Of a stretch of DNA of 64,000 nt, positions 9,655-36,557 are shown in pieces. This stretch comes from Sphingobacteriales bacterium (lineage in GTDB: Bacteria > Bacteroidota > Bacteroidia > Sphingobacteriales > Sphingobacteriaceae). The translations under genes were made by a program, and so were the position numbers. Location of the stretch: NCBI GenBank assembly GCA_047635375.1, contig JBLIKP010000001.1, positions 7,115 to 71,114 on the forward strand. The letters run 5' to 3'. The notes beneath the pieces were generated by a model. It was given only the letters and a program-made list of their open reading frames with translations, was not told the DNA's origin and made no database searches. Positions within the stretch are counted from its first letter, which is position 1. Every line of letters starts with the position of its first letter.

Positions 9655-9772
9655 TTAATAGATGTCAATCGGGTGAATTCGGTATTTGTTTTGAACAAAT
9701 ACTTTGAAAATAATTTAAATTAGCCATATATTTAAAAATCTTTTGTTTTGAGTTAACACTAGGAAATCAATT

Positions 9773-12700
9773 ATGACAAGAAATTTATTCTCTGCATTAC
9801 TACTATGCATTTTTTCTGTTTCGTTTGCTTTAGCGCAGACGGGATCAGGAGAAATTCGTGGTACTATTACTGATGCGACCACGGGTGAGCCAATTCCATT
9901 TGCAAACATTATTGCAGAAAAGAACGGTGTTCAAGAAGGGGGCGCAAGTACTGACTTTGATGGTAAGTACTCGATTAAACCAATTGGAGCTGGTAAGTAT
10001 GATGTGAAAGTATCATATGTTGGTTATAAAATATTCATAACAACAGGTGTTGTAGTTTCATCAAATAAAACAACTTACTTGGACCCAAAGCTTTCTGCTG
10101 GGGTTCAATTGGATGAGGTTGAGATTGTATCTTATACTAAACCTTTATTGGAAAAAGACAATACCACAGTAGGGGGGACAGTTACTGCCGCAGAAATCGC
10201 AAAGCTTCCAACTAGAAATGTTAACTCCGTTGCTTCAACAACCGCTGGTATTTACCAGGCTGATGAAGGTGGAGGTTTAAATGTTCGTGGTTCTAGATCC
10301 GATGCAACTCAATACTATATTGATGGGATTCGTGTAATTGGTGGTTCAAACTCTATTCCTCAGTCGGCGATTGAGGAATTATCTGTTATTACTGGTGGTG
10401 TTCCTGCTCAATATGGTGACGTTACAGGTGGGGTTGTCTCTATTACTACAAAAGGACCATCTAGAACATACTTTGGAGGTGCTGAAGTAGTTACCTCACA
10501 ATTTTTAGATCCTTATGGATATAACTTGGCAGATGTAAGTGTTTCTGGTCCGCTATTGAAAAAGAACAAAGGAACGGATGCTGAAGCATCAGTTTTGGGC
10601 TTCTTTATTTCAACCCAAGTAAGTTTGCAACAAGATCCTAGCCCTTCGGCTTTAGGTTACTATAAAGTAAAAGATGAGGTTTTGGCTGATTTAGAGGCAA
10701 ATCCTTTACGACCAACATCGGGTGGTGGTACTCAGTTAAATGCTGAATACTTAAGAGCTGATGACTTACAAAAAATTGATGCTAAAAGAGAGTCTGAAAA
10801 TTTAGAAGGCTCTATTGCTGGAAAAATTGACTTTCAACCTAGAAAAAACGTGAATTTCACAGTGGGTGGTTCTGGTCGTTACTTTAAAGGACGTCAATAT
10901 ATTTACGATTACTCGTTATTGAACTTCAAAAACAATCCTGAGCAAATTAAAACAGATTATCGTGTATATGGTAGATTTACTCAGAAGTTTAAAAATAATG
11001 AAGAATCTGGATCTTCATCTTCATTAATAAAAAACGCATTCTATCAAATTCAGGCAGATTTCTCAAAAAGCGAGGATATTCGTCAGCATAATACTCACAA
11101 GGACAATCTTTGGGATTATGGTTATGTAGGTAAATTTGAAACGTACCGTCAACCTATATATGAATACAGAACCGATTCTGTAGTTGATAATGGTGAAAAA
11201 AAGGAAATTACAGCTTTCTTCCAAACAGGTATTCAAGATACTTTGGTTGAATTTAGCCGCCGCGAGGTAAACCCACTTCTTGCTAACTACACAAGTCAAG
11301 TTTATGACTTCATAGGTGATAATAACAACCAAAAAAGAACAAATCAACAAATTGTTCAAAATGGGGCTTTGTTAAATGGAGGTAACCCACAACACGTGTA
11401 TAGCCTTTGGTTTAACACAGGAAGAAATGTTCCAGGTTATAATGAAAGTGACGACTCACAATTTAGACTTTCTGCTTCAGCGTCAGCTGATATAAAAGAT
11501 CATGCAATTAAATTTGGTATTGAATACGAGCAAAGAATTGAGCGTTCATACGGGATTTCCCCACAAGCACTTTGGGGACTTGCCCGTCAATTAACCAATA
11601 AGCATATCACTACCCTTGATACAGATGCAGAGGATGCAATCCTTGTTAAGGATGAAAACGGAAATTTCCAAGGTATAGTAAATTATAATCGCCGAATTGT
11701 TGCTAGTGAACAAGCTGAATTTGATAAAAACTTGAGAGCCGCACTTGGTGTTTCTCCAACGGAATTTATTGACATTGACGCATTAGACCCTAGCACTTTT
11801 GCAGTAAATATGTTCTCTGCCGATGAGCTATTAAATAATGGTAGCAGATTGGTTGGATATACAGGTTATACCTTCGATGGAATAAAGACTACGAATAATA
11901 TTGATTATTTTGATTTCTTCGAGGATAAGGTTAATCGCCCCATAGCCCCTTGGAGCCCAATTTATACTGCCGGTTATATTCAGGACAAATTTTCATTCCG
12001 CGATTTAATTTTTAACGTTGGGGTTCGTGTTGATAGATTCGACGCTAACACTAAAGTGTTAAAGGATAGGTTTTCTCTATACGATGTAAGAACAGCTGGT
12101 GAAGTTGCTGGTTCTCTTAACTCAGCGAATGGTGGTATTCACCCAGCTAATATTGGTGCTGATTATGTAGTATATGTAGATGACCCATTAAATCCATCTA
12201 AAGTTTTAGGTTATCGTTCTGGGCAAGTGTTTTTTGATGCTGCCGGTACAGAACGCGCTGATCCAACTCCTTTAAGATCAACAATCACAAACGTTGTAAC
12301 ACCATACTTATCTGATGACGTTCAAGTTAATTCATCAAATGGTTCGCTAGAGTTAAGCCGTGCTTCTTTTAAAGATTATGAGCCTCAACTTACAATCATG
12401 CCACGTATTGCTTTCTCATTCCCGATTTCGGATGAGGCGGTTTTCTTTGCTAACTATGATGTATTAGCGCAAAGACCTCGTGGAAGTAACGTTACTCTGC
12501 CTTATGATTATTTCTTCCTTGCCTCAGGTGCAATTGGAAGAGTTAATAATCCAGATCTTAAACCAGAGAAGACTACAAACTACCAGTTAGGTTTTAAGCA
12601 AAAATTAAGCAACTCATCTGCAATGACATTAACATCATTCTATCGTGAGTTGAAAGACAACATTCAATTAATTAACGTTTCTTTTGCTTATCCAGTTAAT

Positions 12701-13435
12701 TATAACACATACGATAACGTCGATTTTGGTACTTCAAAAGGATTTACTGTTCAGTATGACCTTCGTAGAACTAACAACATTCGAATTAACGCGAGTTACA
12801 CACTTTCCTTCGCTGAAGGAACTGGGTCAAGCTCGACAAGTGCAGGTAACCTAATTGCATTAGGCCAGCCTAACTTGAGAATTCCAACGGCACTAAGTTT
12901 TGATCAACGCCATAACATCGTAACAACATTTGATTACAGATATGGTGCTGGAAGAGAATACGACGGACCTGAATCGCTTAGAGGATTACTTGAAACATTC
13001 GGTGCTAACTTGATTTTCCGTGTGGGTTCAGGAACTCCATTTACAAAGCAATCAAATTACCTAAGAAATGCTGAGATTGGCGGTGGAGATCAACGATTAA
13101 GATCGCTTGAAGGCTCGATTAACGGTTCACGTTTGCCATGGCAATTCAAGGTTGATTTACGTCTAGATCGTGACATCAACATTGGAGACAATGGAAATAT
13201 GAACGTTTACCTGCTGGTTCAAAACGTTACAAATGCCAAAAACATAACAAATGTGTATAGAGCAACAGGTAACCCTGATGATGATGGATTCCTAACTTCA
13301 AACTTAGGTGAGGAGTTCGTTTCAAATACTACAAACCCACAATCCTATTTGGACTTGTACTCCGCAAAAATGGATAATCCAGCGTTTTACACGCTTCCAA
13401 GAATTATCCGTGTAGGTTTACAATACAGTTTTTAA
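9773..13435 (+). CDS. very large TonB-dependent-receptor-like outer-membrane protein (carboxypeptidase-regulatory-like domain + plug + long barrel)
   Basis: 1220 aa. Signal peptide MTRNLFSALLLCIFSVSFALAQ. The GEIRGTITDATTGEPIPFANI...GKYDVKVSYVGY segment is a CarboxypepD_reg-like sandwich. LDEVEIVSY resembles a TonB box. Plug motifs include NVRGSRS...YYIDGIRV...GGVPAQYGDVTGGVVSITTK. The C-terminus ...RVGLQYSF is typical of a barrel terminus. Confidence 0.8.
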   Translation: MTRNLFSALLLCIFSVSFALAQTGSGEIRGTITDATTGEPIPFANIIAEKNGVQEGGASTDFDGKYSIKPIGAGKYDVKVSYVGYKIFITTGVVVSSNKTTYLDPKLSAGVQLDEVEIVSYTKPLLEKDNTTVGGTVTAAEIAKLPTRNVNSVASTTAGIYQADEGGGLNVRGSRSDATQYYIDGIRVIGGSNSIPQSAIEELSVITGGVPAQYGDVTGGVVSITTKGPSRTYFGGAEVVTSQFLDPYGYNLADVSVSGPLLKKNKGTDAEASVLGFFISTQVSLQQDPSPSALGYYKVKDEVLADLEANPLRPTSGGGTQLNAEYLRADDLQKIDAKRESENLEGSIAGKIDFQPRKNVNFTVGGSGRYFKGRQYIYDYSLLNFKNNPEQIKTDYRVYGRFTQKFKNNEESGSSSSLIKNAFYQIQADFSKSEDIRQHNTHKDNLWDYGYVGKFETYRQPIYEYRTDSVVDNGEKKEITAFFQTGIQDTLVEFSRREVNPLLANYTSQVYDFIGDNNNQKRTNQQIVQNGALLNGGNPQHVYSLWFNTGRNVPGYNESDDSQFRLSASASADIKDHAIKFGIEYEQRIERSYGISPQALWGLARQLTNKHITTLDTDAEDAILVKDENGNFQGIVNYNRRIVASEQAEFDKNLRAALGVSPTEFIDIDALDPSTFAVNMFSADELLNNGSRLVGYTGYTFDGIKTTNNIDYFDFFEDKVNRPIAPWSPIYTAGYIQDKFSFRDLIFNVGVRVDRFDANTKVLKDRFSLYDVRTAGEVAGSLNSANGGIHPANIGADYVVYVDDPLNPSKVLGYRSGQVFFDAAGTERADPTPLRSTITNVVTPYLSDDVQVNSSNGSLELSRASFKDYEPQLTIMPRIAFSFPISDEAVFFANYDVLAQRPRGSNVTLPYDYFFLASGAIGRVNNPDLKPEKTTNYQLGFKQKLSNSSAMTLTSFYRELKDNIQLINVSFAYPVNYNTYDNVDFGTSKGFTVQYDLRRTNNIRINASYTLSFAEGTGSSSTSAGNLIALGQPNLRIPTALSFDQRHNIVTTFDYRYGAGREYDGPESLRGLLETFGANLIFRVGSGTPFTKQSNYLRNAEIGGGDQRLRSLEGSINGSRLPWQFKVDLRLDRDINIGDNGNMNVYLLVQNVTNAKNITNVYRATGNPDDDGFLTSNLGEEFVSNTTNPQSYLDLYSAKMDNPAFYTLPRIIRVGLQYSF

Positions 13436-13456
13436 GAAAAAATTAAAGTGTATATA

Positions 13457-16400
13457 ATGAATAGCATTCAATTTAAAAAAATACCTTTTGTTTTAGCAGG
13501 GTTAATGCTGCTTTCAACAGCCTCTATGGCAGAGAAAGACGTAAACCGCAAATCAAAACCAAATGTTAATTCATCTCCGGGTAAGGTGGCAAATAATTGT
13601 AGTACGCCATTGGCCCAATTGGATTTGGATATAAATAACGTTAGAACAACCCTGCTGACGGGCGGAGATCTTTGGTGGGATCGCTCAACAGCTAGATACG
13701 AAATTCCTAAAGTTGAACCTGGATCAGGTGAAACCTCAAGAAATTCTTTGTTCGCTGGAGCCTTATGGTTTGGTGGTGTTGATGCTGGTGGAAACTTAAA
13801 AGTTGCCGCAGCTACTTATGGTCAAGGTGGAAAAGATTTCTGGCCTGGACCATTAACTACCTCTGCCGCATCTACAAATGCAGATATTTGTGCACAATAT
13901 GATAAGCTTTGGAAAGTCAACCGTTCCGAAATCGATACGTTTATTGCAAACTACGATAAGGATGGGTACAAAATTCCAGAATCTATTGAAACATGGCCAG
14001 GAAATGGTGATCAGTCGCTAGGACATGCTAAGAACTTAGCTCCTTTTCACGATGAAGATGGTGATGGTTTGTATAATCCAGCAGCTGGAGATTACCCTGA
14101 AATCTCAGGGGATCAGGCGCTTTGGTGGGTATATAATGATAAAGGAAATGTTCACTCAGAATTTGGTGGAGACCCAATTGGACTTGAAGTGCAAGTTCTG
14201 GCCTTTGGTTTTGCCACCAATGACGAACGAAATAACATGACTTTTTACAAGTATCGTGTAATTAACCGTTCTCCAAACTCTTCCTTAGACTCAACTGTTT
14301 TCGGACAATGGGTTGATCCTGATTTAGGGTTCGCCTTTGATGATTATGTTCAATGTGATGTTGATCGCTCATTGGGTATTTGTTTTAACGGAGATGATTT
14401 GGATGAGAATTCAAATGGTTATGGTTTAAACCCTCCATCTATCGGAGTTGACTTTTTCCAAGGTCCACTTGCAGATGAGAATGATGGTATAGATAACAAC
14501 CGTGATGGTGTTATTGATGAGCTAGGAGAAACAATTATCATGTCTAAATTTGTTTACTATAACAATACTAGTGATCCAGTAAACGGAAACCCAAGTACAG
14601 ACAATGATATCTACAACTATCTTAATGGTGTTTGGAGAAATGGTCAAAGGATTACTTATGGAGGAAACGGAACAACAGCAGGTGGTGATCCAGCTGACTT
14701 TATGTTCCCTGGAACAACAGATCCAAACGGACGTCCTCAATGGACTGAAATCACAGAAGGTAACACTCCTGAAGATAGAAGATTTTTACAAACCGCTGGT
14801 CCTTTTACATTGAAGCCGGGTGCTGTAAATGAAATTATTGTAGGAGTTGTTTGGGCGAGAGCATCAAGCGGAGGATCAACTGGTTCTTTCGACGTGCTAA
14901 GAAAAGCCGACGATAAAGCGCAAATTTTATTCTTTAACGATTTTAAATTAATTGATGGACCAACAGCACCAGATTTGAAAGGTGTTGAATTAGACCGTGA
15001 AATAATTTTAGTATTAGATAACACTGAAGGTACCGAAGGGTATATTGATTCAATTAAGAATAAAAATGGTATAAATATTAACTTTAAGTTCCAGGGATAC
15101 CAAGTTTATCAATTAGCAAACTCTACTGTTACCGCTGGAGACTTGGAAGATGTTACTAAAGCTAGGTTAATCTGGCAATCTGATATTCAAGATGGAATTG
15201 GAAGAATTGTAAACTTTGAGGATGACCCTAAATTACCAGAAGATATTCCAGTAATTAAAGTTGAAGGTCAAGACCAAGGAATTGAGCATACTCTCCAATT
15301 AAAGCAAGATATTTTTGCAACGGGGGATAATAAATTAGTGAATCATAAGCCGTACTATTTCTTGGTGATTTCTTATGCATTTACCGATGATTCAAATTTT
15401 GAACAACCCTATTTAGCTGGTCGTCGAGTTTCAACAATGACCGCTATTCCTCATAAATCTAATCCTCAAAATGGTGGAACGGTTATAAATTCTACTTATG
15501 GCGATGGAGTTCAAATTACTCGTATCGAAGGATTAGGAAATGGCGGGAATGTTTTAGACTTAACAGCGGAAATGGAGGCTCAAATTATGTCAGGAGCGCC
15601 ACATTCAGTTTTGAACCCTGTTTATAATTTAGGGAAAGGTCCTTTGGGAGTTTCAGTTTATAACCCTGTAAATGTACCAGGTGGAAATTTCGATTTTAAA
15701 TTGGAAAGCACTCTTGATAATTGGACAATCACAAGTGAATCAACAAATAAAGTTGTTTCAAACGCATCTGCCTTAGACACTGGTGTTTCTGAGAAAATAT
15801 TAAGTGGTGCAGATTTTGATTGGGGATTAGTTGCAAAACTTAAAAATGTAAACAATCCAGGAATTAAGGCTAGTGCTCAAAATAGCAATTCATTCCTTGA
15901 GGCATCAGTAGCGTTTAATGATCCAACTCAACAATGGTTGACGTTCTTACCTGATATTGAGTTTACACCTTTTAACTGGTTAACATCAGAGCCTGACCCT
16001 GCACGTGGCACACCAGATAATAGACAAGATCCTTTAGGAGCTTATTTAAATGTTTTAAGTGGTACATGGGGCCCATTAAAATTAGCATCAAACAATGTTG
16101 ATTTTGGGCCACAGGTTAAACCGAGTTTCGCATCCTTTATCAGAAATGACCTTTACGAAACAATGAAAAGTGTGGATGTAGTATTTACTGCAGACCAATC
16201 TTTGTGGACTCGTTGTGTTGTTATTGAAACAGGTGGAGATCCAAATCTTTCTGAAGGAAATGCTGAGAAATGGCAACTTCGTAAACGTACATCAGTTAAA
16301 AAAGACGGTACTCCAGATGCTACGGCAGGTGAAGGTTTAGGCTGGTTCCCAGGCTACGCCATTGATGTAGAGAGTGGAAAGCGGCTAAACGTTGTTTTCG

Positions 16401-17155
16401 GCGAGGATAGCTGGTTGAAATCTGAAAATGGTGGTGACATGTTGTTTAATCCGACAGCCAATATAACTCGTGGCCCTGGTGGAAATGGATTTGACAATTT
16501 TGTAAACGGTGGTAAGCACTACCTTTATGTCCACAACTCTACTTACGATGAAGGTGCCGCTGCAAAACAAATTTTAGTTGATTACTGGGATGACAATGGC
16601 AGTAAAAATCCATTAAAAAATTACTTAGGTCAAATGGGATGGATGTCCATTCCTTTAGCAACAGGAAATGCAGCATTTTTAGCTACAGACATAAGGGTTA
16701 GATTAAGAGTTGGAAGAACTTATGCTAAGGAAGATGCAGGAACTAAAACGTTCCAAAATGGCGGTTATCCATTGTTTAAGTTTAGTACTGACGCAATTGC
16801 ATCAAGTACAAATAATTTTGAAGCAGCTAAATCAGCATTAAGCTTGGTAAACATTGTTCCTAACCCATATTTTGCATTTTCAACTTACGAAAACAACCAG
16901 GTTGATAACAGGATTAAGTTTACAAACTTGCCAAAAAGAGCAACGATTTCTATTTATACATTAAGCGGAAGTTTAGTAAGAAGATTAGAAAAAGATTCTG
17001 ATGGACTTACTTCCTTGGATTGGGATTTAAAAAATAGTTCAAGAGTTCCAATCGCAAGTGGTATGTACCTTATTCATGTTGACGGAAAAGAATTGGGAGA
17101 AAGAACCCTTAAATGGTTTGGTGTAATGCGTCCAATTGATCTTGATACATTCTAA
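13457..17155 (+). CDS. large secreted protein of unknown family with a T9SS type-A-like C-terminal sorting domain
   Basis: The ORF-track entry starts at GTG 13448; I prefer ATG 13457 (MNSIQFKKIPFVLAGLMLLSTASMA, an SPI-type signal with no lipobox Cys). I can name no domain across roughly 1,100 aa. The C-terminus has CTD motifs: IVPNPYF, ATISIYTLSGSLVRRL and ASGMYLIHVDGKELGERTLKWFGV. Confidence 0.75.
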   Translation: MNSIQFKKIPFVLAGLMLLSTASMAEKDVNRKSKPNVNSSPGKVANNCSTPLAQLDLDINNVRTTLLTGGDLWWDRSTARYEIPKVEPGSGETSRNSLFAGALWFGGVDAGGNLKVAAATYGQGGKDFWPGPLTTSAASTNADICAQYDKLWKVNRSEIDTFIANYDKDGYKIPESIETWPGNGDQSLGHAKNLAPFHDEDGDGLYNPAAGDYPEISGDQALWWVYNDKGNVHSEFGGDPIGLEVQVLAFGFATNDERNNMTFYKYRVINRSPNSSLDSTVFGQWVDPDLGFAFDDYVQCDVDRSLGICFNGDDLDENSNGYGLNPPSIGVDFFQGPLADENDGIDNNRDGVIDELGETIIMSKFVYYNNTSDPVNGNPSTDNDIYNYLNGVWRNGQRITYGGNGTTAGGDPADFMFPGTTDPNGRPQWTEITEGNTPEDRRFLQTAGPFTLKPGAVNEIIVGVVWARASSGGSTGSFDVLRKADDKAQILFFNDFKLIDGPTAPDLKGVELDREIILVLDNTEGTEGYIDSIKNKNGININFKFQGYQVYQLANSTVTAGDLEDVTKARLIWQSDIQDGIGRIVNFEDDPKLPEDIPVIKVEGQDQGIEHTLQLKQDIFATGDNKLVNHKPYYFLVISYAFTDDSNFEQPYLAGRRVSTMTAIPHKSNPQNGGTVINSTYGDGVQITRIEGLGNGGNVLDLTAEMEAQIMSGAPHSVLNPVYNLGKGPLGVSVYNPVNVPGGNFDFKLESTLDNWTITSESTNKVVSNASALDTGVSEKILSGADFDWGLVAKLKNVNNPGIKASAQNSNSFLEASVAFNDPTQQWLTFLPDIEFTPFNWLTSEPDPARGTPDNRQDPLGAYLNVLSGTWGPLKLASNNVDFGPQVKPSFASFIRNDLYETMKSVDVVFTADQSLWTRCVVIETGGDPNLSEGNAEKWQLRKRTSVKKDGTPDATAGEGLGWFPGYAIDVESGKRLNVVFGEDSWLKSENGGDMLFNPTANITRGPGGNGFDNFVNGGKHYLYVHNSTYDEGAAAKQILVDYWDDNGSKNPLKNYLGQMGWMSIPLATGNAAFLATDIRVRLRVGRTYAKEDAGTKTFQNGGYPLFKFSTDAIASSTNNFEAAKSALSLVNIVPNPYFAFSTYENNQVDNRIKFTNLPKRATISIYTLSGSLVRRLEKDSDGLTSLDWDLKNSSRVPIASGMYLIHVDGKELGERTLKWFGVMRPIDLDTF

Positions 17156-17182
17156 TTTTAAATCAGAAAGAAATTAATAACT

Positions 17183-18229
17183 ATGAAGAATATTTATAGG
17201 TTACTTACAATAACTGCCTTAGCCGGGTTAACCTTGACTTCAGCGAATGCTGGTAATAAGGAAAGAACCGCACAAAATGGTGGGAATGAATTATTAATTA
17301 ACCCATGGGCACGAAGCTCAGGATGGGGAGGGATTAATACAGCGTCCGTAAGAGGTTTGGAGTCAATCAACGGTAATATCGGTGGATTGGCCTTTACTAA
17401 AAAGACTGAAGTGATTTTTGCAAACACCAACTACTTGCAGGCAGCAGATATTTCAATCAATAATTTTGGGTTTGCCCAAAAAATCGGAGAAAGTGGAGTG
17501 CTAGCGGCCTCTGTTTTTTCTATGAATTTTGGAGATATTCCAATTACTAGGGAAGATCAACCAGAAGGTGGATTGGGTACTTATGCACCACAATTTATCA
17601 CCATTAATTTAGCTTATTCGAAAGAGTTCTCTAATAGTATTTATGGAGGTATTGTTGTGAAAGCAATTAATGAGAATATTGCTAACGTAAAAGCTTCAGG
17701 ATTCGCTATTGATGCAGGTATACAATATGTGGCTGGTTCTAGAAACCAGATGCAATTTGGAATTGCTTTGAGAAATGTTGGTCCGAAAATGAGTTTTTCT
17801 GGTGATGGGCTTTCTAAGCGTGTTATTTTTGACAACGGTGTTCCAGGAACTATCCAACAAAGAAGCCAAGCTTTTGAATTACCTTCATTAATGAATATTG
17901 GCGCGTCTTATGACTTTCAGCTTGCTGAAGACCATAGACTAACAACTGCGGGTAATTTTACCAGTAATTCATTTACTAGTGACCAATTTGGTTTAGGTGT
18001 TGAATATGGTTTTAAAAGTTACCTAATGGTTCGTGGAGGTTATAACTATGAATCAGACATCGAAAGTCAAGTGAATACTTTGAATTTATTCACTGGATTT
18101 AGCGCAGGTGCAACTTTTGAAATTCCATTAAGTGATAAAGGTTCTAACTTCGGAATCGATTATTCTTACCGCCCGACATACGTGTTTGGAGGTTCGCATA
18201 CCATCGGTGTCAGAATTGATTTGAACTAG
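17183..18229 (+). CDS. PorV/PorQ-family-like outer-membrane beta-barrel
   Basis: 348 aa. Signal peptide MKNIYRLLTITALAGLTLTSANA. The N-terminal GGNELLINPWARSSGWGGINTASVRGLESINGNIGGLAF resembles the G-x-x-FL-x-I-x-x-x-AR-x-x-G-x-G-G ... NPAGLA signature I recall for PorV/PorQ-type barrels. The rest shows the alternating amphipathic pattern of a beta-barrel. Confidence 0.55.
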   Translation: MKNIYRLLTITALAGLTLTSANAGNKERTAQNGGNELLINPWARSSGWGGINTASVRGLESINGNIGGLAFTKKTEVIFANTNYLQAADISINNFGFAQKIGESGVLAASVFSMNFGDIPITREDQPEGGLGTYAPQFITINLAYSKEFSNSIYGGIVVKAINENIANVKASGFAIDAGIQYVAGSRNQMQFGIALRNVGPKMSFSGDGLSKRVIFDNGVPGTIQQRSQAFELPSLMNIGASYDFQLAEDHRLTTAGNFTSNSFTSDQFGLGVEYGFKSYLMVRGGYNYESDIESQVNTLNLFTGFSAGATFEIPLSDKGSNFGIDYSYRPTYVFGGSHTIGVRIDLN

Positions 18230-18254
18230 TAATAAAAGATTTATAAATTTGTAT

Positions 18255-18292
18255 AGAAGGTTATTCCTAACGGGATAACCTTCTTCTTGTTT
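18255..18292 (+). terminator. rho-independent terminator ending the 9773-18229 operon
   Basis: 10-bp stem agaaggttat (18255-18264) / ataaccttct (18275-18284) with a 10-nt loop, followed by the T-rich tail tcttgttt. Confidence 0.7.
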
Positions 18293-18312: not shown

Positions 18313-18786
18313 ATGAGTGATTTTAATTATTTTACCAAAGAGGGACTTGATAAATTAAAAGCGGAAATCCGAGAACTTAAAACCAAAGGTCGGCCGGATA
18401 TGTCAAGGCAAATCGGCGAAGCTAGGGACAAAGGGGATTTATCGGAAAACGCCGAATATGACGCTGCAAAGAACGCTCAAGGGCTAATGGAGATGCGAAT
18501 TTCACAACTCGAAGGAGTTTTGGGTAAAGCTAGGCTAATTGACGAGTCCAAAATCGACACTACCAAAGTTTTGATTTTATCTAAGGTTAAAGTAAGAAAC
18601 CTAGGAAATGGAATCGAAACGGTTTATCAATTAGTAAGTGAAAAGGAAGCAGATCTAAAAACAGGTAGAATTTCAATTAAGTCCCCAGTTGCTAAAGGAT
18701 TATTAGGCAAGTCTGTAGGTGATAAAGCTGAGGTTCAAGCTCCAAATGGTAAAATGGAGTTTGAAGTATTAGAGATCTCAAGATAA
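18313..18786 (+). CDS. greA: transcription elongation factor GreA
   Basis: 157 aa. Has the N-terminal coiled coil with GDLSENAEYDAAK and the C-terminal globular domain. Confidence 0.95.
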   Translation: MSDFNYFTKEGLDKLKAEIRELKTKGRPDMSRQIGEARDKGDLSENAEYDAAKNAQGLMEMRISQLEGVLGKARLIDESKIDTTKVLILSKVKVRNLGNGIETVYQLVSEKEADLKTGRISIKSPVAKGLLGKSVGDKAEVQAPNGKMEFEVLEISR

Positions 18787-19178
18787 TGGGTACAATATTT
18801 TCTCGCATAATATCAGGAGAATTACCCTGTCATAAGATTGCTGAAACAGACGATTTTCTCGCCTTTTTGGATATTTCTCCACTGGCTACTGGTCACACGT
18901 TGGTAATTCCTAAAAATGAGGTGGATTACATTTTTGACATGGATGAAAAACAATATTTAGAACTTCATTTGTTTGCAAAAAAGGTGGCCATAAATATTCA
19001 AAAAGTTATACTGTGTAAAAGGATTGGTGTTGCTGTAATTGGATTAGAAGTGCCTCATGCCCACATTCATCTGGTTCCAATTAATAACGTAGGTGATATT
19101 AATTTTAGCCGACCAAAACTAACGCCAACCAAGGAAGAATTATCAGCTACAGCTGATAAAATAAGCAGTTTATTTTAA
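18786..19178 (+). CDS. HIT family (histidine triad) protein
   Basis: 130 aa. Histidine triad VPHAHIHLVP. Its ATG overlaps the greA stop by 1 nt (TAATG). Confidence 0.9.
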   Translation: MGTIFSRIISGELPCHKIAETDDFLAFLDISPLATGHTLVIPKNEVDYIFDMDEKQYLELHLFAKKVAINIQKVILCKRIGVAVIGLEVPHAHIHLVPINNVGDINFSRPKLTPTKEELSATADKISSLF

Positions 19179-19721
19179 TCTTTCTGGGTTGTCCTTTAAA
19201 AAAGCATTCCATCCCGAGTAGCCCTTTTCAGATTTTTCGGGATTTCCGTTTTGCAGGTGATGACAAACCGCAGCGGCTAATCCGTCGGTTGCATCGAGTT
19301 TAATGTCTCCAAGTTTAAAGGATAAAATGTTCGTTAGCATTGCAGCCACTTGCTCCTTGCTTGCATTTCCATTGCCAGTAATAGATTGTTTAATTTTTTT
19401 CGGAGAATATTCGGTTATTGGGACCTCTCGGTAAAGACCTGCAGCCATTGCTACCCCTTGGGCCCGGCCCAATTTTAACATTGACTGGACATTTTTACCA
19501 AAGAATGGAGCTTCTATAGAGATGGCATCTGGATTATGCTTATCGATTAATTTTAATGTGGCTTCAAATATTTGTTTTAACCTTAACGCATGGGAATCAG
19601 TTGTTTTCATCTTTAGGATTCCAAGGTCTATTAGGGAAAGTTTGTTTCCTTTAATGCGTACTATCCCAAATCCCATTACATTTGTACCAGGATCAATACC
19701 TAAAATTATTTCCTCCTTCAT
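19170..19721 (-). CDS. ruvC: crossover junction endodeoxyribonuclease RuvC
   Basis: 183 aa. Begins ILGIDPGTNVMGFGIV and shows the RuvC acidic-residue pattern. Its 3' end overlaps the HIT gene convergently by 9 nt. Confidence 0.95.
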   Translation of the reverse strand: MKEEIILGIDPGTNVMGFGIVRIKGNKLSLIDLGILKMKTTDSHALRLKQIFEATLKLIDKHNPDAISIEAPFFGKNVQSMLKLGRAQGVAMAAGLYREVPITEYSPKKIKQSITGNGNASKEQVAAMLTNILSFKLGDIKLDATDGLAAAVCHHLQNGNPEKSEKGYSGWNAFLKDNPERLK

Positions 19722-19772
19722 TAAGGTTTATATTGTTAATATCACCGAATATTGAGACCTTTGGTTCAATCC

Positions 19773-20747
19773 ATGACGACAAAAGCTAAAAAAATTCTTT
19801 TTATTACGGTAAAAATAATCATTCTATTAGCTACACTAATGTTTTTACACGTGAAACTTATAAAGACAGGTAAGTGGAATGATTTTTTAGTTCAGTTTCA
19901 GTCCATTGGCGAGGGTAATACTCTGATTTTTTTAATTATAGGCGTTCTTATGTTGCCCTTTAACACAGGGCTTGAAGCCAAAAAATGGCAATATTTGACA
20001 AAAAAAATTCAAAATATTTCTTTTAAAAGATCTTGGTACGCGGTTTTTTCCGGTGTTACCTTAAATCTTTTCACACCTTTTAATCTAGGAGACTACGCTG
20101 CAAGGACTTTGTATCTCGAAGATAACAATAAGTTAAAAGGCGCGATGTTCACCTTTATATGCGGGATGGGACAATTGGTTGTGACCTTGGTTTTAGGTTT
20201 GCTTTCCCTTCCGTTTTACTTCTTGTATTTCGGGAATTTTGGTTTTACACTTGGATTAGTGCTTTCGGCCATTTCAATATTATTAGCTCTATCCATTTCC
20301 TGGGGATTTTTTAACATTCCTGTGATTTTCCATTGGTTTAGAAAGTTTATAAAGGACAAGAAAATAAGGGTTTACATTAGGTTAATAGAAAATTTATCAA
20401 AATTTGATTTGAGTAAAACCCTTAGATTAAGTTTTTTTAAATTTTTGGTGTACTCAAGTCAATATTATTTTTTTCTACGATTTTTTGGGATTGACGGTTC
20501 AATAATTTTGGTTTACCCATTGTTGTGTCTTGTTTTTTTTACCCAGAGTTTAATACCAACGTTTGCGCTTGTATCTTTCGGTATTAGAGGTGCAGCGGCA
20601 ATCTTTTTTCTTGGTTTGATTTCTCAAAATCATGCCGGGATTCTTGCTGCATCTTTATCCCTGTGGTTGGTTAATTTCATCCTTTCAGGCTTAATAGGCT
20701 TACTTATTATTTTCAGTTTTAATTTTGTACGTGGAGTTAACCGTTAA
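19773..20747 (+). CDS. polytopic membrane protein, MprF-type flippase-like (UPF0104 / lysyl-PG-synthase TM region-like)
   Basis: The ORF-track entry starts at TTG 19752; I prefer ATG 19773 (MTTKAKKILFITVKIIILLATLMFL). It has about 8 hydrophobic helices. The family call rests on overall look and the typical pairing with a GT2, so confidence is moderate. Confidence 0.55.
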   Translation: MTTKAKKILFITVKIIILLATLMFLHVKLIKTGKWNDFLVQFQSIGEGNTLIFLIIGVLMLPFNTGLEAKKWQYLTKKIQNISFKRSWYAVFSGVTLNLFTPFNLGDYAARTLYLEDNNKLKGAMFTFICGMGQLVVTLVLGLLSLPFYFLYFGNFGFTLGLVLSAISILLALSISWGFFNIPVIFHWFRKFIKDKKIRVYIRLIENLSKFDLSKTLRLSFFKFLVYSSQYYFFLRFFGIDGSIILVYPLLCLVFFTQSLIPTFALVSFGIRGAAAIFFLGLISQNHAGILAASLSLWLVNFILSGLIGLLIIFSFNFVRGVNR

Positions 20748-21840
20748 ATTATTCTGGTTTTTATTAGTACTTTATTCACTAATAATAACCTACTTTCTCT
20801 TAGGCTGGTTTAGGTTGAAAAAGCCAAATCAGGCTTTTGATTTCCCTAAAATCTCTGTTTTAATTCCTGCAAGGAATGAAGAGCTAAGACTTGGTCCTTG
20901 TTTGGATTCGTTGATGCTTCAAACTTATCCTAAAGATAAGTTGGAGATAATTGTAATCGACGATCACTCCGAAGACGGGACTTCCCAACTCGCAAGGAGC
21001 TATGGGGTTAAAGTCATTGAAATGAAAGACATCAATACAAATAGTTATAAAAAATTGGCCATTGAAAAAGGGGTTGCTCAAGCCACCGGCGAATATATTT
21101 TAACTACTGATGCGGATTGTTATGTCCCTGAAAATTGGGCAAAGAAAATGGTTTCCTACTTTTTAACTGAGAATGCCAAGTTCATAGCAGGGCCTGTTGC
21201 TTATCATAACGACAATTCTATTTTTGAAAAACTACAACATTTGGAGTTTTTGGCCCTTATAGGAGTTGGAGCAGGCGGGATAGGTCAAAATTTCCCCATG
21301 TTTTGTAATGGTGCGAATTTAGGTTTTCATAGAGATTCGTTTTTAGGATTAGATGGGTTTAAAGGAATAGACGATATCGCATCAGGTGATGACGAATTAT
21401 TACTGCATAGGTTTAGCAGATCATTTCCAAATCAAATTAGTTTTGTGAAATCTTCCGAAGCAATTGTATTAACAGAGGCGGTTTCCTCCATGTCTAAATT
21501 TATTAATCAAAGAAGGAGGTGGGCATCAAAAAGCACTAGACACAAAAATAATTATATAACCCTTATCGCAATAATTACCTTTTTGCTAAATTTATTAATT
21601 GCCCTATTTGGATTATTTTCAGTTTTTTCAATTAAATGGATCTTTCCATTTGTTATTGGATTATTATCAAAGACCATGGTTGAATTGCCGTTAATTTATT
21701 TCTTAACCAAATTCTCCAATAGGAGGGCGTTATTGTGGTGGCTTCCATTTGAGCAATTTTTCTATGTTTTCTATATTGTTTTAATTGCCCCAGCAGGACT
21801 TTTCGGAAAGTACAACTGGAAAGGAAGGAAGGTAAAATAG
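20725..21840 (+). CDS. processive family-2 glycosyltransferase with C-terminal TM helices
   Basis: 371 aa. Contains ISVLIPARNEE, VIDDHSEDGT, TDADC (DxD) and QRRRW (QxxRW). One TM helix lies N-terminal and several lie C-terminal. The start must be TTG 20725 or GTG 20731, because no ATG precedes the first TM helix. It overlaps the upstream gene by about 20 nt. Confidence 0.85.
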   Translation: MYVELTVKLFWFLLVLYSLIITYFLLGWFRLKKPNQAFDFPKISVLIPARNEELRLGPCLDSLMLQTYPKDKLEIIVIDDHSEDGTSQLARSYGVKVIEMKDINTNSYKKLAIEKGVAQATGEYILTTDADCYVPENWAKKMVSYFLTENAKFIAGPVAYHNDNSIFEKLQHLEFLALIGVGAGGIGQNFPMFCNGANLGFHRDSFLGLDGFKGIDDIASGDDELLLHRFSRSFPNQISFVKSSEAIVLTEAVSSMSKFINQRRRWASKSTRHKNNYITLIAIITFLLNLLIALFGLFSVFSIKWIFPFVIGLLSKTMVELPLIYFLTKFSNRRALLWWLPFEQFFYVFYIVLIAPAGLFGKYNWKGRKVK

Positions 21841-32165: not shown

Positions 32166-34262
32166 TTACTTAGTGTAAACTACATTTTTGGTTACCGTAC
32201 TGTTTGAAGTCTTCATTCTCACGAAATAAACTCCAGCATTTGTAAAGCTGTTTTCATTAGCATTTAACTTAATCTTATGGCTTCCTGCCGATAAAGTCTC
32301 GTTTGTTACGCTAATAACACGACCAGTAATATCTAAAACTTCAAGTGTGATATTGTCGGCTTTTTCAAGGTCGAAATTAACACTAAGATCCTGAGTAAAT
32401 GGATTTGGAGCTAAAGTGAATCTCAACTTGAGGGCTTCGGCATCAGCTATACTAGTAGATGGGTTGGCATCATAAATATTGATATTGTCCATGTAAAAAT
32501 TGTTTCCTCCACCTGTGGTAAAGTCGAAACGAATTAGCCCACTAGTTGCACCTTCAATAGCGCCTAAATCAATAATTTGTTCTACCCATTCAGATTCTGA
32601 ACTTGGGAAATAAGTTCCCCCAACAGGTCCGTCTGAGGTTTCCATTTGGCCACCAGCACGACTTAATCTAACTTTCCAAGTTAACCCACAGTTATTACTT
32701 ACATAAACAGTTAATCTGTCAGCGCTTTGGTTAGTCCTTCTGGCGTATGCCATTCGGAAAGAAAGCTTTGGAGAATTCATGTTTGAAATATTGATTCCTG
32801 GGCTAATTAATTGGTCAGTTAAACCTGTAGGAGCGCCATTCACGTTGCTATAATAGATTGAAGCTGCTCCAGTATATGAGGCTTGTTCTGAACGTTGGAA
32901 TGTACGATCGTTGTCTTCGTTTATAATATTCCATCCATCGATATCGAAAGGGTCTGTTTCAAAACCTTCTGTTATTGGTCCGAATAAATCGCTTGTATTT
33001 TTTTGAATTTCAATGTAATCTTGTTTCAAAAGGCTATCAGAACCATTTGCGTTAGAAACCTTAAGTTGAACAGTGTATTTACCATCCAATTTAAATTTTA
33101 CGTTAGGGTTTTTACCCATAACAACAAATGAAGTGTCGCCATTGTCAAAAGTCCATTCCCAAGCATCAACCTCAGCATTGTAGCTATGGTCTGTGAAGGT
33201 TAAGGAAGACCCTGCACATGCAAGCGTGCTATTTGTATTGAAATCAGGGATTGGTGCGCATCCTGGAGAAACATATCCGTCATTTGTACCAGTCGCGATT
33301 AGATTCTGTTCAGTATGGTAAGTGTTTAATGAACCTGAGTTCATTAATGCAGCACGCATTCTGTCTTGTTGCCCATGAGTAAACATACGCTCGCAGCTAG
33401 AGTAATCCATAATGTTTTCAACATTATCAAGACTACCGCAAGATTCTGACGCCTTATTACATCCAGATGATCCAACTGTTAATGGTGTGTCGTCCACGCC
33501 ATCATCAAAGTTGCAATTTGCTATTTCTAAGGGAGTGTTAGTGCCCCCCCAAGTATGTGAAAGGTTATAAAAGTGACCTACTTCGTGTGGAAGGGTACGT
33601 CGACTTAAGTTACCACCTTGACCGAATTGGTTATAGCGGCAGTAAATAGCCCATCTTGGGTTTCCTGGAGCAAAAGTTCCAGGGTTGAATGTATATGCGC
33701 CAGCACCTGATTGCATATTGCGAACAACATAGATGTTCATGTATTTTTTTGTGTCCCAGCTGATTACTGCAGATACTCCAGCATTGTCTCCACCGTCGTT
33801 GGTTTTGTTAGAAAAAGTACGAGTGATACCGTCGGTGCAATTTCCGTTAGGATCAATTTGAGCAAAACGTAATTCAACGTAAGAAGCTCCCATTATTTTT
33901 CTAAAAGTGTCTAACACTTGATTAGAATCCTCGGCCATTTTAAGGTGGTCAAGGTTACTTAGGGCAATAGCGTTAAGCACATCTGATTTAGGAATGTTTT
34001 CAGGGCCATATTCGTGTAGAATATGAACTACCACTGGTATGATAAGTTTTTCGACTGTATCAGTTGATCTTTGAGAAGCTTTGTTAGCAATATAAAATTG
34101 GGTAGCTTCTTCAAGAGCCGCTCTTCGAGCTTGAGCTTCGGTATCATGTTGTACCACATTATCAGTATGACTGTGTGTTGTACATAGTCGTTGTGCCTGT
34201 GCATTTTTCGTTGCCGTTAGGCCTAATGCACCTAGAAGTAAGAGAGTGAAAATTTTACGCAT
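32166..34262 (-). CDS. secreted M43-type (cytophagalysin/pappalysin-like) zinc metalloprotease with PKD-like and MAM-like domains and a T9SS CTD (paralog 1)
   Basis: The ORF-track start at 34337 is rejected in favour of ATG 34262 (MRKIFTLLLLGALGLTATKNAQAQ, a signal peptide). Contains HEVGHFYNLSH, the Met-turn NIMDYS, TTGGGNNFYMDNINIYD and the CTD APNPF...LDITGRVIS...GVYFVRM...VYTK. Confidence 0.85.
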   Translation of the reverse strand: MRKIFTLLLLGALGLTATKNAQAQRLCTTHSHTDNVVQHDTEAQARRAALEEATQFYIANKASQRSTDTVEKLIIPVVVHILHEYGPENIPKSDVLNAIALSNLDHLKMAEDSNQVLDTFRKIMGASYVELRFAQIDPNGNCTDGITRTFSNKTNDGGDNAGVSAVISWDTKKYMNIYVVRNMQSGAGAYTFNPGTFAPGNPRWAIYCRYNQFGQGGNLSRRTLPHEVGHFYNLSHTWGGTNTPLEIANCNFDDGVDDTPLTVGSSGCNKASESCGSLDNVENIMDYSSCERMFTHGQQDRMRAALMNSGSLNTYHTEQNLIATGTNDGYVSPGCAPIPDFNTNSTLACAGSSLTFTDHSYNAEVDAWEWTFDNGDTSFVVMGKNPNVKFKLDGKYTVQLKVSNANGSDSLLKQDYIEIQKNTSDLFGPITEGFETDPFDIDGWNIINEDNDRTFQRSEQASYTGAASIYYSNVNGAPTGLTDQLISPGINISNMNSPKLSFRMAYARRTNQSADRLTVYVSNNCGLTWKVRLSRAGGQMETSDGPVGGTYFPSSESEWVEQIIDLGAIEGATSGLIRFDFTTGGGNNFYMDNINIYDANPSTSIADAEALKLRFTLAPNPFTQDLSVNFDLEKADNITLEVLDITGRVISVTNETLSAGSHKIKLNANENSFTNAGVYFVRMKTSNSTVTKNVVYTK

Positions 34263-34413
34263 TTGTTGTTTTTTGATGTTTTGAGATTTTAAAGATAATA
34301 AATACTTGCGATTAGCGCAATAATACACAATTCGCAAAGTGCTTAATTATGGCATGAATTTTATGCTAAATCCTTGTGTTTTGAACAAAATCAACGATTT
34401 TAGGATAGGACAT

Positions 34414-34466: not shown

Positions 34467-36557
34467 TTATTGGAAAATTACTTTTTCAATAAGGATACCA
34501 TGCTCAGAAGTTAGCTTTAAAAGGTAAACTCCTTTTGCTGGAAACAAATTGTTCCCATTAAAATTAAATGAGCTTGAAGAACTATCTAAAATCACAGCTT
34601 TGACAATTTTCCCAGTAATATCCATTACTTCTAAAGTAGAAGCCAGAGCAGAATTTGAAACTGAAATATTGAAGTTGTTATTAATTGGGTTAGGAGAAAC
34701 CTTAAATGAAACTCCTGATTTTTCAGTCACTCCCGTTGAAGGATTGTTGTCTACAATTTGGATGTTGTCAAAGTAAAGGTTATTGCCACCACCTGTTGTA
34801 ATTTGAAATTTAAACATTGCATTTGTTGCATCATCAATTGAGCTTAGGCTAATTTCATGTTCTACCCATTCGTCTGCCGAGCCAGGGAAGTATGCGCCAG
34901 ACTGTGGACCATCAGTGGTTTCCATTCCTGAACCGAATTTGCTGAATTTGAATTTCCATAATTTACCGCAGTTGGTTGAAGTAAATACAACAAGTCTATC
35001 ACTGGAGCTATTGTTTCTTCTAGCGTAAGCTAAGCGGAAACGTAATACAGGCTCATTCATATTGCTTATATCCACAGCAGGTGAAATCAACTCTGGATTT
35101 TTCCCTGAAGCATTCCCATTTGGCTGATTGTAAACTAAAGAGGCCGCACCTTGATATGAGGCATCGTAAGTTATTTCGAATGCTCTTCCGTCTTTGTCAG
35201 GAACTATTACCCAGTTACTATCGGTAAAATTTTCGTATTCAAATCCTTGTTGAACGTATCCTTGAAGATCTCCATTTTCAGGAATAACGCGAACCCAAGC
35301 CTCACGTGTAAGTGAATCTGATCCAGTTGCATTTGAAACGACTAATTTTACATCAAATTCACCACCCATGGTAAAAGTCATTGTTGGGTTTTGTTCGGTT
35401 GAAATAATGGTAGTGTCTTCGTTCGAGAATGTCCATTCCCAAGCGTCAGGTATGCCGTTCCAAGTAAAGTCGGTAAATTTTATTGGCTCACCTTCGCAGG
35501 CCGTTCTATAATTTTGCCAGAAATCTGCATAAGGCATAATCACATAGGAGTTAGTATCTAAAATACCCGTTACTTCGGCATTTTCTGGCGTAATTAAACG
35601 GTCTATTTTATTTCCTCCTGCTTTCAATGCAGCATGCATTCTATCGGTTTGACCGTGAGTAAACATGTTTTGGCAAGAACCGTTGGTGTAATCCATGTAG
35701 TTGTCAGTCATGTCGAATGTACCACAGGTCTGTTTATTAGTTGGGCATCCACTTGAGGAAGCTGAAGCGTCTGGAGTATCATTTACGCCATCAGAGGCTC
35801 CACAACCACCATCACCCCAAATGTGGCGAAGATTTAAGCAGTGGCCAATTTCGTGTACTAAAGTACGTCCTTGGTTATCGAAAGCGGTTCCAAATTCAAT
35901 TGATCCAGTAACATCGGCACGGATAACAATCCCGTAAGTAGCATCGGCTCCAGTTCCTGGGAATTGAGCATATCCAAGAATAACTCCTCCTCCGCCACTA
36001 GCGCCAATATTTCTAACCACCCATACATTAAAATAACTTGTTTGAGGCCAAACAGAAATTGCTTTATCTGTCCTGTCTGGTTGATTGTTGAAATCGGTAG
36101 CTGATGTAGGTACCATCACACGTCCATCTGTTCTTTCGCCGTTAGGATCTTTTCTAGCAAGGCGAAATTCGATATAAGTATCGGAGGCAACAGCGCGCCA
36201 GCGTTCGTCAGTGTCTGTGGTATCTGGATTAATCCGTCTAAAGTCCTCATTGATAATTCTTACTTGATCTTCAATTTGGGCACGGCTTATTGCCTCTGGA
36301 CCATATTGATGATAAATGTGGAATACAATTGGAATATAAACAGTGTCTTCGTGAGTTTGGGAAGTAACTTTTCTATTTTCTAAATACTGAAGAGTGAATT
36401 GCTCAAGTGCATCACGGTTTTCCTTGTATTCAGGATTTTCTTTAAAATTAATTTCTGTTTGCTCAGTGGTGTAACATGGAATTACAGCTTCCTGAGCTAT
36501 TGCACTTCCTGCAGAAAAGAACATTGCAGCAAGCAGAAAAGAAGAGAGATGTTTCAT
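34467..36557 (-). CDS. secreted M43-type zinc metalloprotease with PKD-like and MAM-like domains and a T9SS CTD (paralog 2)
   Basis: 696 aa. Signal peptide MKHLSSFLLAAMFFSAGSAIAQ. Contains HEIGHCLNLRH, NYMDYT, TTGGGNNLYFDNIQIVD and the CTD SPNPI...MDITGKIV...GVYLLKL...VIFQ. Confidence 0.85.
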   Translation of the reverse strand: MKHLSSFLLAAMFFSAGSAIAQEAVIPCYTTEQTEINFKENPEYKENRDALEQFTLQYLENRKVTSQTHEDTVYIPIVFHIYHQYGPEAISRAQIEDQVRIINEDFRRINPDTTDTDERWRAVASDTYIEFRLARKDPNGERTDGRVMVPTSATDFNNQPDRTDKAISVWPQTSYFNVWVVRNIGASGGGGVILGYAQFPGTGADATYGIVIRADVTGSIEFGTAFDNQGRTLVHEIGHCLNLRHIWGDGGCGASDGVNDTPDASASSSGCPTNKQTCGTFDMTDNYMDYTNGSCQNMFTHGQTDRMHAALKAGGNKIDRLITPENAEVTGILDTNSYVIMPYADFWQNYRTACEGEPIKFTDFTWNGIPDAWEWTFSNEDTTIISTEQNPTMTFTMGGEFDVKLVVSNATGSDSLTREAWVRVIPENGDLQGYVQQGFEYENFTDSNWVIVPDKDGRAFEITYDASYQGAASLVYNQPNGNASGKNPELISPAVDISNMNEPVLRFRLAYARRNNSSSDRLVVFTSTNCGKLWKFKFSKFGSGMETTDGPQSGAYFPGSADEWVEHEISLSSIDDATNAMFKFQITTGGGNNLYFDNIQIVDNNPSTGVTEKSGVSFKVSPNPINNNFNISVSNSALASTLEVMDITGKIVKAVILDSSSSSFNFNGNNLFPAKGVYLLKLTSEHGILIEKVIFQ

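Follow-up and report, generated by a model that had tools for sequence, protein, structure and literature searches.

Outer-membrane barrels of the PorV/PorQ family are known in two roles within type IX secretion systems (T9SS), PorV as the general cargo shuttle and PorQ as the anchor of PorZ. The two T9SS surface proteins that keep their C-terminal sorting domains (CTDs) in Porphyromonas gingivalis are PorZ and PorU, which these domains hold on PorQ and PorV, respectively (PMC10202324). A different pairing is found in the SusC/SusD, BtuB-BtuG and XusA-XusB systems, in which the gene next after that of the transporter encodes its large extracellular partner, there a lipoprotein that travels by the lipoprotein route. 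We analyzed a 64,000-nucleotide stretch of a Sphingobacteriales genome (assembly GCA_047635375.1, contig JBLIKP010000001.1, obtained from metagenome JGI sample 3300054694; hereafter the window, to which coordinates refer unless another locus is named) and describe a trio of genes within it: g1, encoding a TonB-dependent transporter, g2, encoding a large protein of no assigned family that ends in a CTD-like domain, and g3, encoding a barrel of the PorV/PorQ family. Each part is of a known kind, the combination matches no described system, and full-text searching of the literature found no description of the trio. We propose, at a probability of roughly 45%, that the host T9SS exports g2, that g3 holds the g2 CTD, and that g2 serves as the non-lipoprotein capture subunit of g1.

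Other described systems share single features with this locus. Type B CTD cargo genes (e.g., sprB-sprF) are followed by the gene of their own PorP/SprF barrel, which sets the destination of the cargo (PMC12618676). Among the components of the T9SS, PorF (PG0534) is related to TonB-dependent receptors, and CHU_1606, its relative in C. hutchinsonii, co-purifies with PorV; here a barrel of TonB-receptor kinship is linked functionally or physically to a PorV-family barrel (PMC5445135, PMC8564354). In Myxococcus xanthus, the large transporter Oar carries an N-terminal CarboxypepD_reg domain and is required for secretion of PopC (PMC6434023). The order of the trio genes fits the rule that a transporter gene precedes that of its surface partner, as in susC-susD. 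Under a second rule, exemplified by porU-porV and by type B cargo genes next to porP/sprF (PMC12618676, PMC10202324), a cargo gene precedes that of its barrel, and g2 is followed by g3 in the same manner.

Layout and conservation of the trio

All three genes lie on the forward (+) strand, g1 at 9773-13435 (1220 aa), g2 at 13457-17155 (1232 aa) and g3 at 17183-18229 (348 aa). The start of g2 is taken as the ATG at 13457, as in public gene calls; a mechanical list of open reading frames (ORFs) uses the upstream in-frame GTG at 13448. The intergenic gaps are 21 nt between g1 and g2 and 27 nt between g2 and g3, neither of which can form a stem, and a hairpin resembling an intrinsic terminator closes the operon at 18255-18292 (+; 18255-18284 form a 13-bp stem with a 4-nt loop, then TCTTGTTT). 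The ORFs and the hairpin thus confirm the layout given in an earlier note on this DNA, made from the sequence alone, which had described a same-strand trio with short, stem-free gaps and one terminator after the third gene. The T-run that follows the hairpin (TCTTGTTT) is imperfect. Terminator-like matches inside the trio genes occur at chance frequency (8, versus 5.9 ± 3.1 in shuffled sequences), and the GC content of the trio does not differ from that of its surroundings. Upstream of g1, the presumed promoter region is an intergenic stretch of 118 nt (9655-9772, +) that follows a 2-hydroxyacid dehydrogenase gene; it holds one sigma-70-like match at 9704-9732, a class of match whose total is at chance level and whose consensus differs from that of Bacteroidota.

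To define the conservation of the locus, we compared the best 80 loci found with an alignment of the g2 family, which are its closest relatives (37-46% identity), so that the results may not hold for distant members. Their labels are Flavobacteriales (Cryomorphaceae, Schleiferiaceae), Bacteroidales, Lentimicrobiaceae, Chitinophaga-like and Sphingobacteriales. The arrangement g1-g2-g3, with order and strand preserved, is present in 70 of the 80; five of the remaining loci are cut by contig ends and five hold orphan g2 paralogues. Median gaps are 24 nt for g1-g2, 27 nt for g2-g3 and 88 nt from g3 to greA. When ORFs of the 80 loci were clustered, g2 was found in 80, g1 in 74, g3 in 72, greA in 64, HIT in 61 and ruvC in 34, with every other family in 23 or fewer; this clustering yielded no fourth conserved partner, the recurrent extras being housekeeping genes. 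In the reverse direction, starting from three g1 homologues, a g2-sized and then a g3-sized gene came next in all three cases. The synteny on which the earlier proposal of a functional module depended is therefore present in other genomes, whether the search is seeded with g2 (70/80) or with g1 (3/3).

The g2 family is large, comprising 3447 clusters at 50% identity (E ≤ 1e-30) and more than 3000 clusters at 90% identity, with relatives in at least 594 species-representative genomes. Public labels of these relatives read "hypothetical" or "T9SS sorting domain-containing," and a search of the g2 cluster members for a cultured carrier returned environmental sequences only. Since g1, g2 and g3 each have thousands of homologues, all three are genuine genes. 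Very probably the trio forms one functional unit.

The evolutionary distances of the proteins were also correlated across 51 complete loci, with control for greA/HIT and for the other parts of the trio. The best correlation for g1 was with the g2 body (partial r 0.575), followed by g3 (0.44) and the g2 CTD (0.29). This pattern fits g1 as a hub, but such a distance-correlation ("mirror-tree") test is confounded by rate variation shared among outer-membrane and envelope proteins and is given little weight.

Protein g2 and its candidate anchor g3

The CTD of g2 (16838-17152, +; residues 1128-1232) is predicted as a seven-strand sandwich in the AlphaFold2 (AF2) model and retains the type A motifs PNP, G..V and G.Y. 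The domain had been called type-A-like in the earlier note; on TIGR04183 (cutoff 23) it is borderline, with 24.6 bits for the isolated C-terminal 130 aa and 20.0 bits for the full-length protein. TIGR04183 is matched at E < 0.01 by 22 of 36 g2 relatives; PF18962 does not match g2 and weakly matches 7 of 36. Scanned against NCBIfam, the isolated CTD gave its best score with the C terminus of PorZ (29.7 bits) and scored 18.9 bits with PorU. The PorZ C terminus is likewise matched by 23 of 36 relatives, with a best E of 7e-9. A profile built from 37 family CTDs and run against all PDB sequences placed PorZ first (5m11, residues 670-745, E 0.012) and PorU second (6za2, E 0.087); the single g2 CTD sequence found no match in the PDB, PorZ and PorU being reached by the family profile only.

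Three paralogous cargo genes of the window, each encoding Peptidase_M43, PKD and a canonical T9SS sorting domain, served as internal controls (32166-34337, -; 34467-36557, -; 48496-50577, +). The presence of three canonical CTD cargo genes implies that the host has a T9SS. The CTDs of these ordinary cargo proteins score 41-48 bits on TIGR04183, and none of them matches PorZ. Alignment of g2 to the three canonical domains revealed a 9-aa insertion, YFAFSTYEN (16868-16894, +), and a 9-aa tail, MRPIDLDTF (17126-17152, +); such a tail, with F or Y at its end, occurs in 80 of 83 copies from the related loci. This conserved insertion and aromatic-ended tail also distinguish the g2 CTD from those of PorZ and PorU. 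Several individually marginal lines thus agree in that the g2 CTD is atypical and resembles PorZ and PorU more than it does the ordinary cargo CTDs of the window, and by this likeness it would be of the retained type.

Sequence conservation points in the same direction. The mean p-distance within g2 is 0.42 for the CTD and 0.56 for the body, as compared to 0.42 for greA and HIT together, and in two of four pairs of same-genome g2 paralogues the CTD is kept better than the body (identity 0.88 versus 0.74 and 0.81 versus 0.66). The M43 cargo paralogues exhibit the reverse, with identities of 0.23-0.29 in the CTD and 0.42-0.47 in the passenger. Conservation of the g2 CTD, opposite to that of the M43 cargo, argues against removal of the domain.

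Two sets of paralogues are of note with respect to the CTD. Five orphan g2 paralogues (loci L004, L013, L016, L043 and L078) retain a full CTD and tail without g1 or g3 nearby; one of these (L013) and a complete trio (L005) come from a single metagenome-assembled genome (MAG), their g2 copies being 81% identical in the CTD and 66% in the body. Such a pairing of orphan and trio suggests that one g3 barrel may be common to several g2-type proteins. In two Bacteroidales MAGs, a second paralogue, g2', directly follows g3 to give g1-g2-g3-g2' (L038, 14405-18430; L065, 14376-18413). These g2' proteins keep the CTD insertion but lack the aromatic tail, ending in KWFGALSE, and could serve as a natural variant that shows the role of the tail.

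The candidate binding partner of the CTD, g3, passes the PorV/PorQ family model NF033709 at 154.6 bits (cutoff 90). It scores below cutoff on both equivalog models, with PorQ (NF033711) giving the best equivalog match at 86.5 bits (cutoff 220) and PorV (NF033710) 75.3 bits (cutoff 250), the latter over the N-terminal half alone. The family, PorQ and PorV models are each matched by all 31 sequences scanned, g3 and 30 orthologues (best E 2e-46, 1.7e-24 and 1.4e-21, respectively), and the sole PDB sequence matched by g3 is Flavobacterium johnsoniae PorV (6h3i_F, E = 4e-7). Because g3 passes the family model and fails both equivalog models, it looks like a member of a third clade of the PorV/PorQ family. 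Assignments to FadL, PorP, a BamG-type barrel or PorV2 were considered and set aside, as NCBIfam places g3 in the PorV/PorQ family; scores were 43 bits for PorV2 (cutoff 325) and 24.8 bits for PorP/SprF (TIGR03519, cutoff 90.55). The suggestion that gene 3 encodes a PorV/PorQ-type barrel, rather than FadL, is thereby upheld. The Bacteroidota BAM complex differs in that it uses a different FadL-like barrel (PMC12578637, PMC12611786). The trio likewise departs from type B cargo with PorP/SprF, with g3 in the PorV/PorQ family and a g2 CTD that is type-A-like and not type B, and from the PorU/V/Q/Z attachment complex, in that it includes a gene for a TonB-dependent transporter and a barrel that fails both equivalog models.

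The body of g2 is less readily placed. By inspection, its signal peptide is of the signal-peptidase-I type without a lipobox, as in 51 orthologues from complete loci, and the first ~1100 aa match nothing in Pfam or NCBIfam, either for g2 alone or, at permissive E-values, member by member in 36 relatives, which agrees with the initial description of a non-lipoprotein of no assignable family. Pfam and NCBIfam detected neither a catalytic domain, nor SusD, nor a type B CTD in g2, and the g2 family profile found no PDB sequence that matches the body. The AF2 model, mostly beta, is of moderate confidence (predicted local distance difference test [pLDDT] 78.6; predicted template-modeling score [pTM] 0.65). 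With Foldseek, this model gave partial matches in the PDB to beta-sandwich domains of glycoside hydrolase (GH) 116, GH94 and GH15-type enzymes (template-modeling [TM] score 0.13-0.16), and comparison to predicted viral structures gave nothing useful beyond a CTD-like match and a GH65 sandwich match. Because the sandwich matches are partial and low in TM-score, no enzymatic function was inferred from them. The nearest CTD relatives of g2 have unrelated bodies, PorZ consisting of two beta-propellers and PorU of a gingipain-like peptidase: full-length g2 scores 24 bits against PorZ (cutoff 260) and 13 bits against PorU (cutoff 420), with the CTD alone aligning, and the Foldseek TM-score of the g2 model with PorZ 5m11 is 0.09-0.14.

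Certain elements of the g2 body are strongly conserved. An acidic loop, DGIDNNRDGVIDELGE (14483-14530, +; residues 343-358), contains the pattern DGIDNDRDG..DE..GE, which is nearly invariant in family alignments, and by its sequence DGIDNNRDGVIDELGE resembles a calcium-binding loop; a few family members give weak EF-hand matches. Invariant cysteines were observed at residues 48, 145 and 300 (window ~13598, 13889 and 14354) together with several invariant His, Asp and Glu residues; in every orthologue read, the first cysteine lies ~20 residues beyond the site where the signal peptide is predicted to be cleaved. A PorU-like cysteine peptidase, considered in view of the invariant Cys and His residues, was rejected, as neither the fold searches nor the model scans gave a match to a gingipain or PorU.

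These properties of g2 and g3 bear on the strongest competitor of the proposed complex, namely that g3 is a transient shuttle like PorV, g2 being cleaved and then released or covalently attached while g1 imports g2 products or a ligand, with no stable complex formed. A type-A-like CTD in a host with ordinary T9SS cargo, the partial likeness in fold to glycoside hydrolase and phosphorylase beta-sandwich domains, and the orphan g2 paralogues without g1 or g3 would all suit such a pathway. Nonetheless, it would be unexpected for a CTD destined for removal to be conserved better than any other part of g2 or to be PorZ/PorU-like; ordinary type A cargo relies on the general PorV and lacks a private barrel gene, and Pfam and NCBIfam detect no catalytic domain in g2. 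We consider this explanation unlikely. A stable g2-g3 pair, proposed here by analogy to PorZ-PorQ and PorU-PorV and from the CTD and barrel family matches, is favored somewhat over its absence.

The g1 transporter

g1 begins with a signal peptide followed by a CarboxypepD_reg beta-sandwich (9854-10093, +; residues 28-107) that matches PF13620 at 57.2 bits and PF13715 at 55 bits and corresponds to strands at residues 4-81 of the AF2 model. Between sandwich and plug lies a linker with the sequence LDEVEIVSY (10109-10135, +; residues 113-121), which presumably resembles the TonB boxes of Bacteroidota. The linker is disordered in the AF2 model (model residues 90-104, pLDDT below 50) and moderately conserved among the 51 orthologues as L-E-E-V-E-V-V..Y. 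The plug (10178-10435, +; residues 136-221) scores 40.9 bits on PF07715 (cutoff 23.9), is also present in the AF2 model, and is among the better-conserved stretches of g1, with a mean majority-residue fraction of 0.72 in a 26-sequence alignment. It is followed by a beta-barrel with long loops (10472-13432, +, from AF2 secondary structure) that ends in the aromatic C terminus LQYSF, and residues 514-1151 match TonB_dep_Rec_b-barrel PF00593 at 42.6 bits (cutoff 27). The Pfam matches and their positions agree with the sandwich, plug and barrel that the earlier note had assigned to gene 1, as does the LQYSF end.

The AF2 model of g1 is of moderate confidence (pLDDT 78.9, pTM 0.72), and ~22-24 long barrel strands were counted by eye in its secondary-structure string. 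Foldseek matched the model to PirA, FptA, BtuB and PfeA (E ~1e-20, TM-score 0.6-0.7 relative to the target) as well as to XusA and BtuB of B. thetaiotaomicron. With plug and barrel models above cutoff and a predicted fold that fits classic transporters, g1 is a true TonB-dependent transporter. Its extra length resides in long loops (model residues 266-321, 476-534, 575-708, 737-850 and 1134-1189), whose majority-residue fraction in the same 26-sequence alignment is 0.55-0.69 versus 0.55-0.83 for the strands. Loops as conserved as strands are unusual for TonB-dependent transporters.

The predicted fold of g1 is thus near those of XusA and BtuB, and its gene, like theirs, is followed by that of a large putative extracellular partner; in contrast to the lipoprotein partners of SusC/SusD, BtuB-BtuG and XusA-XusB, g2 has no lipobox and would rely on the T9SS for its delivery and on a separate barrel for its anchorage. 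NCBIfam gave no SusC/RagA match in g1, and SusC-like and Oar-like assignments were rejected in that no Pfam or NCBIfam model for either, including the Oar-type barrel model, was matched. With no SusC, SusD or PorU model matched, the locus has neither the SusC/SusD nor the porU-porV layout, as had been noted from the sequence.

The properties of g1 further inform two other explanations. In the first, less probable than transient shuttling, the trio is an accessory of T9SS or of surface attachment in which g2 and g3 are PorZ-PorQ-like and g1 is PorF-like, and which sorts, attaches or processes other cargo or surface glycans. The precedent of PorF and CHU_1606 (PMC5445135, PMC8564354) is consistent with this possibility, as are the PorZ-like CTD, the choice of PorQ as best equivalog match of g3 and the position of the trio among housekeeping genes. 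PorF, however, has a mass of ~92 kDa and is reported to be without a plug (PMC8564354), as opposed to g1, with an estimated mass of ~134 kDa from its 1220 aa, an N-terminal extension, a TonB-box linker and a plug. Moreover, g1 matches no T9SS model of NCBIfam, and g2, by the full-length PorZ score and Foldseek comparison given above, is not PorZ.

The second explanation dispenses with T9SS export: g2 would pass through g1 in the manner of Oar and PopC and then dock on g3, the CTD-like domain being an Ig-like docking domain. There is precedent for protein secretion via a large CarboxypepD_reg transporter (PMC6434023), and the g2 CTD remains under threshold on standard CTD models in the full-length scan. 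Against this stand a CTD that keeps the type A motifs and fold, a barrel family known only from T9SS contexts in a host that clearly has a T9SS, and a g1 that matches no Oar-type Pfam barrel and is predicted to be structurally an ordinary plugged transporter. Oar-PopC also belongs to another phylum and has no barrel of the PorV/PorQ family, and g2 carries a T9SS-type signal. Export through g1 is accordingly held to be very improbable.

Candidate mechanism and genomic setting

We infer that the T9SS exports g2, that the g2 CTD is retained on g3, that g2 and g1 are in contact, and in which direction transport runs. In the proposed mechanism, g2 would cross the inner membrane via Sec, directed by its signal-peptidase-I signal, and the outer membrane via the host T9SS, which would recognize the CTD. 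Ordinary cargo loses this domain; that of g2 would be kept and bound to the dedicated barrel g3, as PorZ is on PorQ and PorU on PorV, such that g3 would do the job performed by the lipid anchor in SusD-type partners. The ~1100-aa beta-rich body of g2 would then sit on or beside the long conserved loops of g1 and capture an extracellular ligand, which g1 would import using TonB. An uptake role together with g1 is the more tentative component of this scheme, at somewhat less than even odds. The earlier note had proposed that g3 holds g2 at the surface through its CTD and that g2 works with g1; indirect support for this comes from the PorZ/PorU-like CTD, its conservation above the rest of g2, the conserved loops of g1 and the parallel divergence of g1 and g2. 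The module had been called self-contained, which is too strong a term, as it would depend on T9SS and TonB-ExbBD of the host.

Several observations weigh against a g3-anchored capture subunit of g1. The CTD matches are marginal (20.0 bits on TIGR04183 at full length; PDB E-values of 0.012 and 0.087), and the partial distance correlation between CTD and g3 is weak (r 0.12), a value we regard as uninformative rather than negative. Orphan g2 genes in 5 of 80 loci indicate that g2-type proteins are not strictly tied to an adjacent transporter. The body of g2 offers no clue to a ligand, the sandwich matches and acidic loop being too little to name one, and the operon lies among housekeeping genes and not in a nutrient-utilization locus. 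All of the related loci, in addition, are from uncultured organisms.

A bolder version, which we view as improbable, is that the trio is a TonB-energized surface machine and not a nutrient importer, in which the plugged g1 uses TonB force on a T9SS-delivered, g3-anchored g2. g1 might then insert, extract, gate or remodel g2, or act through g2 on surface polymers; if this were true, two outer-membrane systems driven by the proton-motive force, TonB and T9SS, would be coupled in one conserved module. The milder version, at the rough 45% given above, is the best explanation: g2 as a non-lipoprotein lid on a TonB-dependent transporter, delivered by the T9SS and anchored by a barrel.

The idea that the three genes have no functional link and are neighbors by inherited order in a stable housekeeping region, as greA, HIT and ruvC are conserved alongside without an evident functional link, can be largely dismissed given the operon-like gaps of the trio (medians of 24 and 27 nt) versus 88 nt to greA, upstream neighbors that vary while the trio does not, three products that are all outer-membrane or surface proteins, and a cargo-then-barrel order as in known cognate pairs.

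The region around the trio is neither a polysaccharide-utilization locus nor a mobile island. Upstream lie tatC, accC, accB, fabH, plsX, yceD, pdxA, rsmA/ksgA and the 2-hydroxyacid dehydrogenase gene; downstream lie greA, a HIT-family gene, ruvC, a gene for an LPG_synthase_TM-type membrane protein and a GT2 glycosyltransferase gene. The block greA-HIT-ruvC(-)-LPG_synthase_TM-type-GT2 (window 18313-21840) follows the trio in most loci across several Bacteroidota orders, a gene order unusually stable for the phylum. Ahead of greA by ~60 nt, and just 5' of the terminator hairpin, is TAAATTTG (18244-18251), which we take to match the Bacteroidota -7 promoter motif TAnnTTTG; should TAAATTTG serve as promoter of greA, the leader of that gene would also contain the hairpin. 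Elsewhere in the window, between plsY and prmA/tpiA, a 1465-aa ORF (38841-43238, -) with a signal peptide and no Pfam or NCBIfam match encodes, judged from its sequence, another large protein of unassigned family, secreted or of the envelope.

If the proposed arrangement is true, a third clade of PorV/PorQ barrels is hard-wired to one conserved 1200-aa CTD protein and a TonB-dependent transporter. Pairing a barrel with a retained CTD would then be a general means of building permanent surface complexes, and Bacteroidota would be able to give a transporter an extracellular partner without a lipoprotein. The large g2 family lacks a Pfam domain, a name and a solved relative, and the trio is set in the housekeeping core of lineages that abound in freshwater, marine and sediment settings. 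By this scale and this position, the function of the trio likely matters for feeding or for building the cell surface.

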